Source of the DNA: Pseudomonadota bacterium
Lineage (GTDB): Bacteria > Pseudomonadota > Gammaproteobacteria > Pseudomonadales > Pseudohongiellaceae
Length of the DNA stretch: 64,000 bases
Direction: 5' to 3'
Assembly: GCA_022566775.1 (NCBI GenBank)
Contig: JADFIJ010000001.1
Location: 110-64,109, forward strand
The notes under the pieces are model-generated. The model made no database searches. It was given only the letters and a program-made list of their open reading frames with translations, and was not told where the DNA came from. Shown in pieces: positions 10,904-23,289 of the stretch. Positions within the stretch are counted from its first letter, which is position 1, and the number at the start of each line of letters is the position of its first letter. The translations under genes and the position numbers were made by a program.

Positions 10904-12637
10904 TTAATCAGCTTCTACATAACGAATGAAGCCGAAGAACATCTCTTGCCAGGTTTGTTCCCCCCATGTTATCTCTGCCGAGGGATCCGGATTGAATGGG
11001 TTCATCTCTGAATTATCGAACGTGGCTCTATAGACCATTTCAGTTCCTGCTGGCAAGAACATGGGCTCCTTAAAATCGTACACTTTCTGCCAGTTGAACT
11101 GGTAGTTAGGCACGTTGAGGATTTCTTGTTCCCTACCGTCGGGAAAGATCAGCTTGAAGTTGGCATCGTAACCACGATAGTGCATGTGGGGTCCCAGCAT
11201 GGACAAATAAACGTCCTTGCGAAATTTCTTGGTAGCGACCATTTCATGGCGGGCCTTAAATGGTGGAATATAAATATCCAGATCGGCGGCGGAGCCACCG
11301 AGGACCTGTCGCGCCGGCGGTTCGTCCCATAAATAAAGTCCAATTTCCGACGCATCGACAGCTTCTTTGCCCGTTACCGTGTAATGCATCTGCAGCATCA
11401 GACCGCCGCCAGCCTTGAGTGGGAAGCCCGAATTTTCCGGATAAGTATTAATGGAGTTACCCGGGGCGTATGCACCCAGGCCGATACCCTGATTCAAGAG
11501 CTCAAATTCATTCAATCCGTTGGGGCCATACGCGAATGCGATGATATGGTGAAGCACGGTGGGATCACCGGGAACGAATTCCACAGCCTTTACCCAGATA
11601 TCCTCGGTTATATCCAGGGGGATCTGTAAATTCCTGTATTCCTGTATTCCAGTTGCAGGAATTTGCTGAGGAGGAATGGAGATAATGATGTCAGGTTCGC
11701 GTTCGCCATAATTCCATTTAACCAGTTTAATATCCAAGGCAGCGAGCGGATCGACCCCGTCTTTGTTGAGGGAACCGTTGTCAATCCAGTGGACTAATTT
11801 TTGACTCTCATCGATGGAGATGAAACTGACATTGTGGAAGTCCTCGATATAGTCATTGTCAATCTGACCCGGGGGCATGCGCTTAGTTAAAATCACTTCA
11901 CGAATCATGGGAGACCAGCCCTGGATCATCTGATGACTGCTCATGGCGAAAGGCGCGATTCCACCTTCCATATGACAACTCACACAACGCTGTTCAAGAA
12001 TTGGCGCAATGTCGCTGGCATAAGATATTGATGCGGCATGATTGTCTCTGGCGGCAAATTCGATTGCGTTGCCTTTGCTGGCTAACTGCTCAACGGTAAT
12101 ATCCTCACCTGCGAGAATTGCGTCCAGGGCATCAGCAACATAATGTTCACTAGCTCGGCGAGCTCGGCTGCCCTCAGCAAATCTATTATTCAAGGCGCCA
12201 CGATAGACAACTTCAAGGGCTTTCGGGACGATGATAATCACATCAGTAGCTCGAGTGATACCGAGTTCCTCTGCCACCAGCTGTGTATCATCCATCAAGA
12301 TTGGCAGGGAGATCTTCGCGTCGGCAGCTACTTCTCGCATCTCGCTTTTGCTGCTGGCACCAGTAGAGTCAATCATGAAGAAGGCAATTTTGTCCTCATT
12401 AAATTGTTCTACAAGCTTCTGCAGGTCACGGGCGGCTCGGCGTACGTCTCTGCTATCTTCATGTGCGAACAGTACAATGGCGTCGTGGTCTGCATAGCGG
12501 CTTACTTGATGAAACCTGCCATTATGATCGATTAGTGAAAAATCACTGATTCGATCAGCGGCAATGGCTGATAACCCTGCAAACATTGTTAGCATAAATG
12601 CCACTGCAAGCTTGACCATAAACGAATATTTAAGCAT
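10904..12637 (-). CDS. Exported tri-domain protein: redoxin-like domain, mono-haem cytochrome c (CxxCH), and PHM/DBH-type copper monooxygenase-like domain (paralog 1)
   Basis: Signal peptide MLKYSFMVKLAVAFMLTMFAGLSAIAA. A thioredoxin-fold-like segment reads ISDFSLIDHNGRFHQVSRYADHDAIVLF. The haem site is CVSCHMEGGIAPFAM, followed by KRMPP. PHM-like ligand motifs are TVLHHIIAF, LMLQMHYT, GPHMHYRG and TWQEMFFGF. Confidence 0.7.
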   Translation of the reverse strand: MLKYSFMVKLAVAFMLTMFAGLSAIAADRISDFSLIDHNGRFHQVSRYADHDAIVLFAHEDSRDVRRAARDLQKLVEQFNEDKIAFFMIDSTGASSKSEMREVAADAKISLPILMDDTQLVAEELGITRATDVIIIVPKALEVVYRGALNNRFAEGSRARRASEHYVADALDAILAGEDITVEQLASKGNAIEFAARDNHAASISYASDIAPILEQRCVSCHMEGGIAPFAMSSHQMIQGWSPMIREVILTKRMPPGQIDNDYIEDFHNVSFISIDESQKLVHWIDNGSLNKDGVDPLAALDIKLVKWNYGEREPDIIISIPPQQIPATGIQEYRNLQIPLDITEDIWVKAVEFVPGDPTVLHHIIAFAYGPNGLNEFELLNQGIGLGAYAPGNSINTYPENSGFPLKAGGGLMLQMHYTVTGKEAVDASEIGLYLWDEPPARQVLGGSAADLDIYIPPFKARHEMVATKKFRKDVYLSMLGPHMHYRGYDANFKLIFPDGREQEILNVPNYQFNWQKVYDFKEPMFLPAGTEMVYRATFDNSEMNPFNPDPSAEITWGEQTWQEMFFGFIRYVEAD

Positions 12638-13045
12638 GTTGCTCTCCTGAGAATGAAGGTAGCTTCGAATTGCTAGCGTCGCATACTAGATAAGCCAATT
12701 GAAGATTGCTTCCTGAAAACTGAAAAGTTGTTGAATTTCAATAATCGGTAAGTTGTTTTCTTCGCCTGTCCCCTATTATTTTATGCAAACAGCCATCAAC
12801 AGGCGCTTCTGGCCTGCATGGATTAGACGGCGATAACGGCAATTTGGTTACATCAACAACAGTTTAAATTGGATAAAGAGGCTGCCCTGGATCTCGAGGG
12901 ACGGTCAGGCATGGCTGGACTCAATTAATTGGATTGGAGGATTAGGCTGGCTCCTGGTGCTGATTGAAATTTCACCGAGGAATATTTTTCGCATATATTC
13001 GAAGTCCGGGGGTATGATCCGCAGCAGCATAATCGGGCAATACGT

Positions 13046-21405: not shown

Positions 21406-21570
21406 AAAATCTTCTGTGCTCGACAAATAGTACCTATGCTGGCAACGGGATGGTATTTCTGGCACTGCTCGCAATTCTCGATTTCCAGTTTTCCATGTTA
21501 CAAAAGCACACACATTATTCATCCCAATTGTGCCTTACATGGTTTAGAATCACCCCGTTAATCTAGCGCG

Positions 21571-23289
21571 ATGGAGCTTCGAGATGTGAATAAATTACTC
21601 TGTTTGGGAATGACTGCAGCTGTTGCCGTTCTGTCAACATCGGTCCTCGCCCTGCCTGACAGGATTGGTGACTTTGGCCTGCTGGACAGTGATGGTGACT
21701 TTCATCAATTAAGTCGTTATCGCAACAAGGAAGCGTTGGTATTAATGTCTTTCGACCCCAGCTGCACCTCTATCGACTCTTCACTTTCGAGCCTGCAGGC
21801 ATTGCAAACTCAATGGCGTGATCAGGGTATTGCTTTCGCGTTGATCAATTCATCTGCCGAGTCAGATCTTGCCGTCATTCGATCTGCGAAGGCAGATATC
21901 GATCTACAACTACCCCTGTTACTCGATAGTGGCCAGCTGGTTTCAGAAACCCTGCAACTGACCAAGGCGGGTGAAGTGGCCATTCTCGATCCCGAGCGAC
22001 TGACTCTCATTTATCGCGGTCCAGTAGCGAGTGCGGCGGCAACGCTGGCTGCCGAAATCGCCGGCAGCGTCGAGCGCACCCGCGTTATCGCAGCAAGCGG
22101 CTGTGATCTGACCTATCCGGTCCGTGAAAGTCATGCCAGTGCGACCCCAGACTACGCTTCCGAAGTCGCCCCGATTATTGCCGAGCAGTGCGTCAGCTGT
22201 CACCGGGCAGGGGGCATAGGACCCTTTGCCATGGATAGCCATCTGATGTTGCAGGGCTGGTCGCCGATGATTCGGGAAGTGCTTTTGACCCGACGCATGC
22301 CGCCTACCCAGGTAGACCCCAATATTGGCCATTTTAGCAATGCCCGCTACATGAGCGATGCCGACATGCAAACCCTGGTGCATTGGATTGACGCCGGCGC
22401 TCCACGGGGTACGGCAGTGATAGATCCATTGACCGAGATCCAACTACCGAGCTGGAAAACCTGGACCCTGGGGGAGCCAGATTACATCGTCACGGCGCCG
22501 AAAATGGAAATTCCTGCCACCGGGGTAATGGACTACATTACCGTCAATGTGGAACTTCCTTTCACTGAAGACAAATGGGTAAAGGCTGTTCAGTTCATCC
22601 CTGGCGATGAATCTGTGCTCCACCATTTACTGACCTATGTAACCGCCCCAGCCGAAGAATTTGATGGTGGCGAAGCCAATGTACGCTCGGTTGCACGGCG
22701 CTTCCTCGAAGGCTATGCCCCGGGCAAAGTGGATGCCATGACATTTCCCGAAGACACCGGGGTGTACATTCCCCAAGGGCATAAACTGTCCATGCAGTTT
22801 CACTTCACCACCAACGGCAGAGCCACCACCGATGAAACCCTGCTCGGTTTGTACCTGTACGATGAGCCACCCAAGTATGAGAATTTCACCCGCTCCGTAT
22901 CGTCGCAATTCAGAATCCCCGCGTTTGACCAGGACTATGAGTCCGCAGCCTCCTATGTGTTTGACGAAGACGTAGTGGTGACAGGCCTGCGCGCCCACAT
23001 GCACTTTCGTGGCAAAGACATGAAGTTTTCCATAGAAAATGAAGATGGCTCCATGACCGATCTGCTAAGCGTCCCCAATTACAGTTATGCCTGGCAGCCG
23101 ACGTATACGCTGGAGGAACCGATGCTGGTGAAAGCCGGAACCAGGGTTCATGTCACCGGCGCCTTCGATAATTCCGAGTACAATCCGGCGAACCCGGATC
23201 CGAGTAAGGAACTGACTTTTGGTTTGCAGAGCTGGGATGAGATGTTCATCGGCTACTGGACCTATCACGCCGCCGAGCCCGCTAACTAG
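21571..23289 (+). CDS. Exported redoxin-like, haem c and PHM-like copper monooxygenase fusion protein (paralog 3)
   Basis: A signal peptide is present. Motifs in order are IGDFGLLDSDGDFHQLSRYRNKEALVLMSFDPSC; CVSCHRAGGIGPFAM followed by RRMPP; then SVLHHLLTY, LSMQFHFT, RAHMHFRG and SWDEMFIGY. Confidence 0.7.
   Translation: MELRDVNKLLCLGMTAAVAVLSTSVLALPDRIGDFGLLDSDGDFHQLSRYRNKEALVLMSFDPSCTSIDSSLSSLQALQTQWRDQGIAFALINSSAESDLAVIRSAKADIDLQLPLLLDSGQLVSETLQLTKAGEVAILDPERLTLIYRGPVASAAATLAAEIAGSVERTRVIAASGCDLTYPVRESHASATPDYASEVAPIIAEQCVSCHRAGGIGPFAMDSHLMLQGWSPMIREVLLTRRMPPTQVDPNIGHFSNARYMSDADMQTLVHWIDAGAPRGTAVIDPLTEIQLPSWKTWTLGEPDYIVTAPKMEIPATGVMDYITVNVELPFTEDKWVKAVQFIPGDESVLHHLLTYVTAPAEEFDGGEANVRSVARRFLEGYAPGKVDAMTFPEDTGVYIPQGHKLSMQFHFTTNGRATTDETLLGLYLYDEPPKYENFTRSVSSQFRIPAFDQDYESAASYVFDEDVVVTGLRAHMHFRGKDMKFSIENEDGSMTDLLSVPNYSYAWQPTYTLEEPMLVKAGTRVHVTGAFDNSEYNPANPDPSKELTFGLQSWDEMFIGYWTYHAAEPAN

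Follow-up and report, generated by a model that had tools for sequence, protein, structure and literature searches.

A putative split PHM/PAL system, with PHM-like proteins fused to a predicted haem c domain, in a gammaproteobacterial lineage

PAM, the peptidylglycine alpha-amidating monooxygenase of animals and algae, fuses PHM, a two-copper hydroxylase, with PAL, a zinc lyase built on a six-bladed NHL propeller. Here we describe a stretch of 64,000 nucleotides from an uncultured marine gammaproteobacterium, a Pseudomonadota bacterium of the Pseudohongiellaceae (assembly GCA_022566775.1, contig JADFIJ010000001.1, positions 110 to 64,109; the whole stretch is called the window below) in which counterparts of both halves are encoded as separate exported proteins, three PHM-like and two PAL-like, together with a HupE_UreJ_2 membrane protein. 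PAM is described as the sole enzyme making C-terminally amidated peptides, and its PHM half is hard to produce recombinantly (PMC9155641). Bacterial PALs with measured lyase activity are known, such as ExiPAL of Exiguobacterium sp. (PMC10900485, PMC9155641, US patent 9,096,843), which has been used together with rat PHM in enzymatic amidation platforms (PMC9155641); the natural functions of bacterial PALs 'remain unclear' (PMC10900485). No prokaryotic sequences are mentioned in a 2019 review of PAM phylogeny, and a 2025 paper gives PAL just as an animal example of a hemiaminal lyase (PMC12508155). In the full-text literature, with most subscription journals outside its scope and absence being no proof, we found no bacterial PHM homologue, no thioredoxin-cytochrome-PHM architecture and no PHM/PAL pairing. 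An earlier note, made on this DNA from the letters alone, had stated that no characterised prokaryotic PHM+PAL pathway was known. Bacterial PAL activity as such is known already; what seems to be without a previous description is a PHM partner, its fusion to a haem domain and the pairing of the two families.

The genes in question, and the signals beside them, are as follows.

10904-12637, minus strand: PHM-like 1, 577 aa (open reading frame list, Pfam and motif reading)
14974-16164, minus strand: PAL-like 1, exported NHL propeller, 396 aa
16409-17602, minus strand: PAL-like 2, exported six-bladed NHL propeller, 397 aa
17834-19219, plus strand: HupE_UreJ_2 membrane protein (PF13795), 461 aa
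19606-21405, plus strand: PHM-like 2, 599 aa (open reading frame, Pfam, alignment of 73 relatives, AlphaFold2 model and Foldseek)
21571-23289, plus strand: PHM-like 3, 572 aa (open reading frame, Pfam and motif reading)
10842-10876, minus strand: intrinsic-terminator-like hairpin 3' of PHM-like 1, read by eye
16356-16385, minus strand: strong hairpin resembling an intrinsic terminator, between PAL-like 2 and PAL-like 1, from a terminator scan
17603-17833: intergenic region between the divergent PAL-like 2 and HupE_UreJ_2 genes, from the gene coordinates

The coordinates of the six genes had been proposed in the earlier note, and all were recovered in an open reading frame check. The mechanical reading frame of PAL-like 2 reaches further upstream, to a TTG at 17626. 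This start was ruled out by 397-aa homologues that are 100% identical (P0121), and the ATG at 17602, as given before, is correct. PHM-like 2 and 3 share a strand, with 165 bp from the end of the former to the start of the latter, and no further PHM-like or PAL-like copies lie elsewhere within the 64-kb window.

Compared with animal and algal PAM (1PHM/1OPM and 3FVZ), the window proteins are alike in the two-domain PHM fold, the His3 CuH site and the His2Met CuM site; PHM-like 2 and 3 also have, by sequence register, putative counterparts of R240 and Y318. On the lyase side they share the six-bladed NHL propeller, the zinc site of three histidines, R533 and the catalytic Tyr and Arg; both activities would, as in PAM, lie outside the cytoplasm. 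They differ from PAM in being encoded by separate genes on opposite strands, in multiple paralogs and beside a HupE_UreJ_2 gene, and in the fusion of the PHM core to thioredoxin-like and c-type haem domains, with no ascorbate or cytochrome b561 context. N316 of PHM and the calcium-site Asp of PAL are missing, and identity to PAM is only about 16-19%.

The three PHM-like proteins are mutually 40-49% identical and share a common architecture, which consists of a signal peptide, a thioredoxin-like domain, a haem domain with a CxxCH...MPP pattern, and a core of about 290 residues with the PHM/DBH fold. In PHM-like 2, the thioredoxin-like domain covers approximately residues 36-190 and is followed by CVSCH at 234-238 (nt 20305-20319) and M270 (20413-20415). 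The CuH ligands are H377/H378 (20734-20739) and H436 (20911-20913), and the CuM ligands are H504/H506 (21115-21123) and M586 (21361-21363). The corresponding motifs of PHM-like 3 are CVSCH at 207, RMPP at 242, VLHH at 349, HFT at 411, R474-A-H-M-H, and DEMFIGY at 556. PHM-like 1 keeps all six copper ligands and CxxCH. The motifs earlier claimed for all three paralogs (VLHH; HYT/HFT; HMH(Y/F)RG; (D/Q)EMF) are present as quoted.

Conservation was assessed by aligning the window's three proteins and 70 representatives of the family (73 sequences, 29-52% identity). C234, C237, H238, M270, H377, H436, E585 and M586 were invariant. The remaining copper ligands were nearly so, with H378 kept in 72/73 and H504 and H506 each in 71/73, compared with 73/73 for H377, H436 and M586. 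The profile built from this alignment places HH, H, HxH and M on rat PHM H107/H108, H172, H242/H244 and M314, which bears out the copper-ligand correspondence of the earlier note; the rat PHM sequence used was verified against PDB entries. Chance resemblance is excluded, since the ligand columns are invariant or conserved at 90% or above in 73 divergent relatives and the gene arrangement recurs in more than 60 independent assemblies.

The fold agrees with this assignment. The AlphaFold model of PHM-like 2 (pLDDT 91) was compared with the PDB using Foldseek. The best matches were DBH (4zel, E 2e-13) and about 30 PHM entries, with E-values ranging from 2e-13 to 1e-10. These PHM/DBH alignments extended over 280-308 columns across both domains, with target TM scores of 0.56-0.66 (0.66 for PHM 1phm). 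The 73-sequence profile also retrieved DBH 4zel from the PDB (E 6e-4). Single-sequence phmmer searches of the PDB, with a PHM-like protein or its core, returned no PHM or DBH match, so that the profile of 73 sequences and structure prediction were needed. DBH, tyramine beta-monooxygenase (TBM) and MOXD1 share the fold and all six copper ligands with the window proteins. In contrast, DBH contains a DOMON domain, acts on phenylethylamine substrates and has neither haem c nor a thioredoxin-like domain.

Pfam profiles gave a more uneven picture. AhpC-TSA matched all three PHM-like proteins (E 1e-6 to 1e-8) and 56/73 of the family. Cu2_monoox_C (PF03712, cut-off 23 bits) matched 43/73; it passed in two of the three window proteins (28.2 bits for PHM-like 2 and 23.1 for PHM-like 3, against 17.2 for PHM-like 1). 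Of the PHM profile models named in the earlier note, the C-domain model thus reached its cut-off in two of the three proteins and the N-domain model in none. The haem domain, a helical region at 210-301 in the model, has its two Cys, His and Met-Pro-Pro conserved in 73/73. Cytochrome_CBB3 and Haem_bd match 26/73 and 12/73 of the relatives, respectively, whereas the window proteins stay under the Cytochrome_CBB3 cut-off (16 bits versus 27; PHM-like 3 weakly, E 0.014). The thioredoxin-like domain resembles the uncharacterised structures 3U5R, 2YWI and 2CVB by profile (E 1e-18 to 3e-22) and by fold (TM about 0.7), and ResA/TlpA likewise. Unlike these, it lacks a CxxC; it has one Cys in 49/73 relatives, which PHM-like 2 and 3 keep and which is replaced in PHM-like 1. 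With no CxxC and a single Cys in only this fraction of the family, redox activity of the domain is doubtful. An NCBIfam search added nothing specific to the Pfam assignments.

The wider family is large. Searched exhaustively with the core, it comprises 7,623 clusters (50% identity) at E<=1e-3 and 863 at E<=1e-30, carrying at the source only the names 'redoxin domain-containing protein', 'peroxiredoxin' or 'hypothetical'. No fusion of a PHM-like core to an NHL propeller was seen among 150 family representatives; long relatives instead bear Ig-like, BlaR1-M56, TPR, EF-hand or CBM domains. Among P0244, P0282, P0290, P0299, P0383 and others, the architectures include a tandem duplicate of the entire thioredoxin-cytochrome-PHM unit (1,251 aa), He_PIG/Ig domains at the C-terminus, a sensor peptidase of the BlaR1-type M56 kind at the N-terminus together with a CBM48, TPR repeats, and EF-hands.

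The three paralogs, which the earlier note had treated as equivalents, are alike in their copper ligands but not in the residues that would contact the substrate. In PHM, the substrate carboxylate forms a salt bridge with Arg240 and has secondary contacts with Tyr318 and Asn316 (PMC12164859). Arg240 lies two residues before H242 and Tyr318 four after M314, and the register of both positions is unambiguous because there is no alignment gap in either stretch. The counterparts by sequence register are R502 (21109-21111) and Y590 (21373-21375) in PHM-like 2 and R474 and Y562 in PHM-like 3. In PHM-like 1, the two positions are occupied by Gly482 and Phe570. This Arg is found in just 6/73 of the wider family. 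Yet it is present in 119/120 orthologues of PHM-like 2, FIGY being kept in 120/120, and the Arg/Tyr pair is present in 107/107 scorable orthologues of PHM-like 2 and 3 in the fetched loci. Orthologues of PHM-like 1 always have Gly at the Arg240 position, and the paralogs overall present the combinations R/Y, G/F and A/W. This clamp is the most specific evidence for the binding of a terminal carboxylate close to CuM in PHM-like 2 and 3. PHM-like 1, with the same redox machinery and without the clamp, probably hydroxylates a different substrate.

The two PAL-like proteins are 62% identical and have the same seven catalytic and metal positions. Pfam NHL matches both (E 1e-12), as do, weakly, SGL/lactonase models. 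The residues of PAL-like 2 correspond to those of rat PAL as follows.

R77: R533 (HR77 versus HR533)
H134 (nt 17201-17203): H585, zinc
Y205 (16988-16990): Y654 (DGY205RNRR versus DGY654CNSR)
H254 (16841-16843): H690, zinc
D268-R269 (R269, 16796-16798): D705-R706 (CDR269GADRVQVF versus ADR706ENGRIQCF)
H351 (16550-16552): H786, zinc

The rat PAL register was set with displayed alignments and the segment FSVPHSLALVPHLDQLCVADRENGRIQCF (PAM residues 686-714), which was verified against the PDB; a PDB search with just the C-terminal half of PAL-like 2 gave a shifted register to PAL, owing to the repeats. The zinc-ligand histidines are invariant in 21 homologues. The motifs claimed earlier for both propellers (NHGI; DGY(G/R)N(K/R)R; PVHC; CDRGADR(I/V)QVF; (P/T)HS) were found. 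A phmmer search aligned PAL-like 2 over its full length with 3fvz (E 1.6e-6, 67-375 versus 24-311), TRIM-type NHL repeats scoring higher only locally. Rat PAL 3fvz was also the top PDB match by Foldseek (E 1e-16, TM 0.77) of its AlphaFold model (pLDDT 78). Counterparts in register of the zinc, Tyr and Arg sites named in the earlier note are thus all present, in a fold matching rat PAL. Compared by residue positions only, ExiPAL (catalytic residues H95, Y178, H210, R225 and H309) is likewise a prokaryotic six-bladed propeller with three zinc histidines, Tyr and Arg at similar spacing. It differs in keeping the calcium-site Asp (D310), a position at which the window proteins have Ser, and reports on it name neither a PHM partner from bacteria nor a natural role.

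Propellers of two classes travel with PHM-like genes. Class I has R-H-Y-H-D-R-H at the seven positions and includes both window genes as well as the PAL-like proteins of two other loci, L050 and L088, in which the counterparts of R533, H585, Y654, H690, D705, R706 and H786 are all kept. In class II (R-H-H-H-D-R-E; L001:5797-6846, L088:8459-9514, L053:7025-8299, L042:8516-9772), the PAL catalytic Tyr is replaced by His and the third zinc His by Glu. This class is absent from the window. In many relatives a class II propeller sits between HupE_UreJ_2 and a PHM-like gene, where the window has a 386-bp spacer (19220-19605).

Gene linkage was counted for PHM-like genes with at least 6 kb on both sides, a neighbour being a gene within 6 kb. 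Clamp-type PHM-like genes had an NHL propeller as neighbour in 68/72 cases and HupE_UreJ_2 in 61/72. For the other PHM-like types, an NHL neighbour was found in 4/13 cases, all four inside the same blocks, and none of the distant clamp-less homologues had a PAL-like neighbour in the 5 contexts available. The association with the clamp gave a Fisher p of 1e-6, a value that ignores shared ancestry and so is not a true probability. The adjacency that the earlier note proposed to look for in other genomes does recur, also with different flanks, but it is confined to the clamp-bearing subfamily.

The arrangement was found in well over 60 independent assemblies, and the block is ubiquitous in metagenome-assembled genomes of Pseudohongiellaceae/OM182-type gammaproteobacteria. 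Its order in this lineage is PHM-like 1, Endonuclease_NS, a 190-aa protein, PAL-like (1-3 copies), HupE_UreJ_2, PHM-like 2 and/or 3, CstA and BirA, with 3-4 PHM-like and 1-3 PAL-like paralogs per locus. In rearranged loci (L069-71, L076, L078, L120 and others) the 190-aa, PAL, HupE and PHM genes stay together, and CstA is moved and inverted. In two loci, L088 (GC 0.50) and L094 (GC 0.62), PAL-like, HupE_UreJ_2 and clamp-type PHM-like genes (63-65%, 55-59% and 52-55% identical to those of the window, respectively) stand in the same orientation between wholly different flanks. The 190-aa, Endonuclease_NS, CstA and BirA genes are missing there. The flanks hold PQQ dehydrogenases, a small cytochrome c, MCP, carAB, an alpha/beta-hydrolase, a TPP enzyme and FMN_dh, with PQQ dehydrogenases, MCP and carAB among those of L088. 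Second loci pair the families again, either a clamp-type PHM-like gene (50%) with a PAL-like gene of 42% identity in which none of the seven residues is lost (L049, L050, L055, L056) or a PHM-like gene with a variant propeller (L042, L043, L051, L053, L057, L058). A genome scan with one of the alignments recovered the window's own lineage only. The conserved core is thus PAL-like / HupE_UreJ_2 / PHM-like, and the pairing is specific to the clamp-bearing subfamily and documented mainly in one gammaproteobacterial group.

Some further genes in these loci deserve mention. PQQ-dependent dehydrogenases of the quinohaemoprotein type flank the module outside the window's lineage (L088:1-5283, L094:3636-5732 and 11837-14167, L050:6293-8593), and the small cytochrome c belongs to the L088 flank; the fused haem domain might receive its electrons in the periplasm from these proteins. 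An FMN-dependent 2-hydroxyacid dehydrogenase/oxidase of the glycolate-oxidase family or a GlcD-like FAD/Fe-S oxidase lies a few kb from PHM-like genes in three different locus types (L053:12140-13288, L094:16990-18267, L090:14312-17206), a possible link to glyoxylate/glycolate metabolism. In L090/L091, a fourth, clamp-less PHM-like paralog begins 65 bp after a gamma-glutamyltranspeptidase (GGT) gene. An independent link between GGT and PHM-like genes was rejected, as these loci come from a close relative (GGT 83% identical) and count as synteny. Glutathione and the GGT product Cys-Gly are both glycine-terminated.

The third component of the core had been assigned as a HupE/UreJ-type permease, and the Pfam match agrees (PF13795, E 9e-41, residues 220-369). 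A signal peptide and a periplasmic N-domain of about 180 aa, without family match, precede the polytopic domain. In 60 orthologues, H227-x5-D233-H234 (an HX5DH motif located in the domain's first helix), H262, H319, H337, H387 and H391 are at least 95% conserved. The mature N-terminal His is not among these residues, and the idea of a copper 'histidine brace' at this position was dropped. The HX5DH motif is important in HupE proteins; PF13795 is a sister family of which we know no characterised member. Like the HupE/UreJ nickel/cobalt permeases, the window protein has the HX5DH motif and a HupE_UreJ_2 domain; unlike them, it has the extra N-domain and is linked to copper/zinc enzymes rather than to hydrogenase or urease. 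It is most likely a metal-handling partner.

From the domain architecture, the folds, the conserved residues and the gene linkage, we infer a set of cofactors, an electron route, a substrate, a coupling of the two enzymes and a physiological role: C-terminal glycine would be removed oxidatively in the periplasm, in two steps and with electrons supplied through haem, and scavenging would be the probable purpose. We give this reading a probability of about 50%. PHM-like 2 and 3 would be Sec-exported and their CxxCH would receive haem c in the periplasm. As there is no ascorbate in this compartment, electrons would come from periplasmic carriers and pass through the fused haem c to CuH (His3) and then to CuM (His2Met), where O2 would be activated. 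The Arg/Tyr clamp would hold a substrate with a terminal carboxylate as PHM holds peptidyl-glycine, and the alpha-carbon would be hydroxylated; the simplest substrate would be a glycine-terminated peptide or an N-acylglycine. The PAL-like zinc propellers would then cut the N-C(alpha) bond of the carbinolamide to give a primary amide and glyoxylate, as suggested by a PAL site that is fully conserved and by the activity measured for a different bacterial PAL. HupE_UreJ_2 might handle a metal needed by, or regulated with, these metalloenzymes. The purpose is most likely nutrient scavenging rather than a biosynthesis of the peptide-hormone kind, because the genes are multi-copy, no precursor-peptide or tailoring gene of the kind that serves ribosomally made peptides that are modified after translation (RiPPs) was recognised in the region (short open reading frames were not specifically searched), and the neighbours are exported peptidases (M14, M19), GGT, an exported amidohydrolase and CstA.

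We considered the possibility that the same two-step logic serves substrates other than C-terminal glycine, as a general periplasmic oxidative N-dealkylation. The copper enzymes would hydroxylate a C-H beside the amide or amine nitrogen of other carboxylate compounds (other N-acyl amino acids, conjugates, dissolved organic matter), and the propellers would cleave the resulting carbinolamides. The loss of Asn316, which is PHM's peptide-backbone contact and is replaced by Ile, fits this view, as do the non-peptide substrates of DBH and TBM and a fold match to DBH that is as good as to PHM. The paralogs with other clamp residues and the Tyr-to-His and His-to-Glu replacements of class II propellers suggest diversified substrates as well. 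Bacteria also have an analogous demethylation by a hydroxylase and a lyase, that of methylguanidine by MdgH/MdgL; there, too, an oxygenase makes a hemiaminal that a dedicated lyase cleaves, though the system is cytoplasmic and its proteins are of unrelated families (a 2-OG/Fe dioxygenase and a different lyase; PMC12508155). Yet those paralogs that are linked to canonical PAL-like genes strictly retain the Arg/Tyr pair, which in PHM serves specifically to bind the carboxylate of glycine, and every PAL residue that handles alpha-hydroxyglycine is kept. We therefore regard a substrate other than C-terminal glycine as unlikely.

Alternatively, PHM-like and PAL-like proteins might be functionally unrelated, with their adjacency reflecting lineage synteny, shared regulation or metal supply, and the propellers might be of the lactonase or hydrolase type. 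The opposite strands, the terminators and the intervening genes would be expected in this case. Most loci are also syntenic over more than 20 kb, including birA, coaX and cstA, distant PHM-like homologues stand alone, and the propellers have their weak SGL/lactonase matches. However, the trio survives full replacement of its flanks (L088, L094) and internal rearrangement (loci of the L069 type), independent second loci pair both families again, and the association follows the carboxylate-clamp signature. Furthermore, the complete PAL catalytic set, needless for a lactonase, is kept. We regard a lack of functional relation between the two families as unlikely. A biosynthetic system, one that amidates the C-terminus of a secreted product (a signal, a siderophore-like peptide or one of RiPP type) in the way PAM treats hormones in animals, is very improbable: its machinery is homologous to PAM and all components are exported by N-terminal signal sequences, but no Gly-ending precursor-like gene was recognised, no other tailoring, export or immunity genes occur in the neighbourhood, each locus has 3-4 PHM-like and 1-3 PAL-like paralogs, and the peptidases, GGT, amidohydrolase and peptide/pyruvate-type transporter nearby fit degradation.

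Several points weigh against oxidative glycine removal as we propose it. The activity of the whole PHM-like family is a predicted one. The model of the PHM N domain (PF01082) matches no window protein and only 1/73 relatives, weakly (E 0.003), and PHM-like 1 is below the Cu2_monoox_C cut-off. The clamp equivalence depends on alignment register, and the Asn316 counterpart is Ile in all. The calcium-site Asp787 is Ser352 in PAL-like 2 and Ser in PAL-like 1. The PAL-like genes lie on the strand opposite to the PHM-like genes, with terminators in between. An NHL neighbour is lacking in 4/72 clamp-type genes (that of L095, for instance), and most linked loci belong to one gammaproteobacterial lineage (Pseudohongiellaceae/OM182-like), so that shared ancestry inflates the 68/72 and only a handful of arrangements are independent. 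Finally, the role given to HupE_UreJ_2 is guesswork, as characterised HupE/UreJ proteins import nickel or cobalt into the cytoplasm and would not load periplasmic enzymes.

The remaining genes on either side and within the block are the following.

1733-4558: Peptidase_M14 (Pfam)
4828-5436, minus strand: cupin
5628-6986, minus strand: Peptidase_M19 dipeptidase (Pfam)
7309-9027: GGT (Pfam)
9030-10733, minus strand: exported Amidohydro_3 amidohydrolase (Pfam E 1e-104)
13046-13885, plus strand: Endonuclease_NS, membrane-anchored DNA/RNA non-specific endonuclease (Pfam E 1.5e-23)
13905-14477, minus strand: exported 190-aa protein, no family match (Pfam/NCBIfam and synteny)
23495-25270, plus strand: CstA-family transporter (Pfam E 4e-133), context only
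25792-26598: BirA
26595-27353: type III pantothenate kinase
28107-28473 and 29908-29980: four tRNAs (Rfam)

From 1.7 to 25 kb, the window is a run of exported or envelope nutrient-processing genes (M14, M19, GGT, Amidohydro_3, the nuclease and CstA). The Amidohydro_3 gene, convergent with GGT and adjoining PHM-like 1, keeps this position in many relatives and might encode a hydrolase of the amide product. CstA lies directly downstream of PHM-like 3, a position kept in the lineage but not in L088/L094. The two genes at 13046-14477 had been set aside as unrelated. This does not hold for the 190-aa protein, whose gene is a constant neighbour of the PAL-like genes in the window's lineage (31-96% identity between loci; absent from L088 and L094) and travels with the block. 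The nuclease, kept between PHM-like 1 and the 190-aa gene in the lineage, is probably an unrelated function of nutrient scavenging. Beyond the tRNAs, in 25792-64000, a long stretch of strongly positive GC skew has all its genes on the plus strand; by synteny with L004 (EF-Tu, SecE, NusG) it is the tuf-secE-nusG / ribosomal protein / rpoBC region.

The two intrinsic terminators claimed earlier (10842-10876 and 16351-16384) correspond to real hairpins, the second lying at 16356-16385. The first reads GGCCCGAC, a 13-nt loop, GTCGGGC and then T8, and was skipped by the automatic terminator scanner because of the length of its loop. The second has a 13-bp stem with 6 GC pairs and a T-run. Only these two individual hairpins are noteworthy, as the totals of the promoter and terminator scans were not above shuffled expectation; nor was the one promoter-like match (minus strand, 17847-17818). 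The divergent arrangement of HupE_UreJ_2 and PAL-like 2, also noted earlier, is kept in relatives, and 17603-17833 is presumably their shared regulatory region. Rfam detected no riboswitch or other RNA element in the region, the tRNAs at 28107-29980 excepted. With opposite strands, terminators and intervening genes, the locus is, as had been concluded before, a neighbourhood and not one operon.

If the proposed pathway is true, it would offer a natural partner and context for bacterial PALs, and would bear on the origin of PAM and on the question of why bacteria have active PALs. A defined path of electrons from haem to CuH and CuM would be of interest for the mechanism of copper enzymes, and peptide drugs might be amidated without ascorbate or animal-cell expression. 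More tentatively, abundant marine gammaproteobacteria may perform ascorbate-independent amidation chemistry in the periplasm, with a haem-c-wired PHM homologue on the respiratory chain and a true PAL that together strip C-terminal glycine from peptides, N-acylglycines or glutathione-derived Cys-Gly, the glyoxylate and amides being assimilated; bacterial PALs would then have the partner and the natural role that they have been missing, and a first bacterially expressible PHM would be at hand. On this reading the system could also be related, as a prokaryotic kin, to the ancestor from which eukaryotic PAM arose. If catabolic, the system would give widespread marine heterotrophs an oxidative, copper-dependent route for the use of dissolved organic nitrogen and glycine-terminated compounds.

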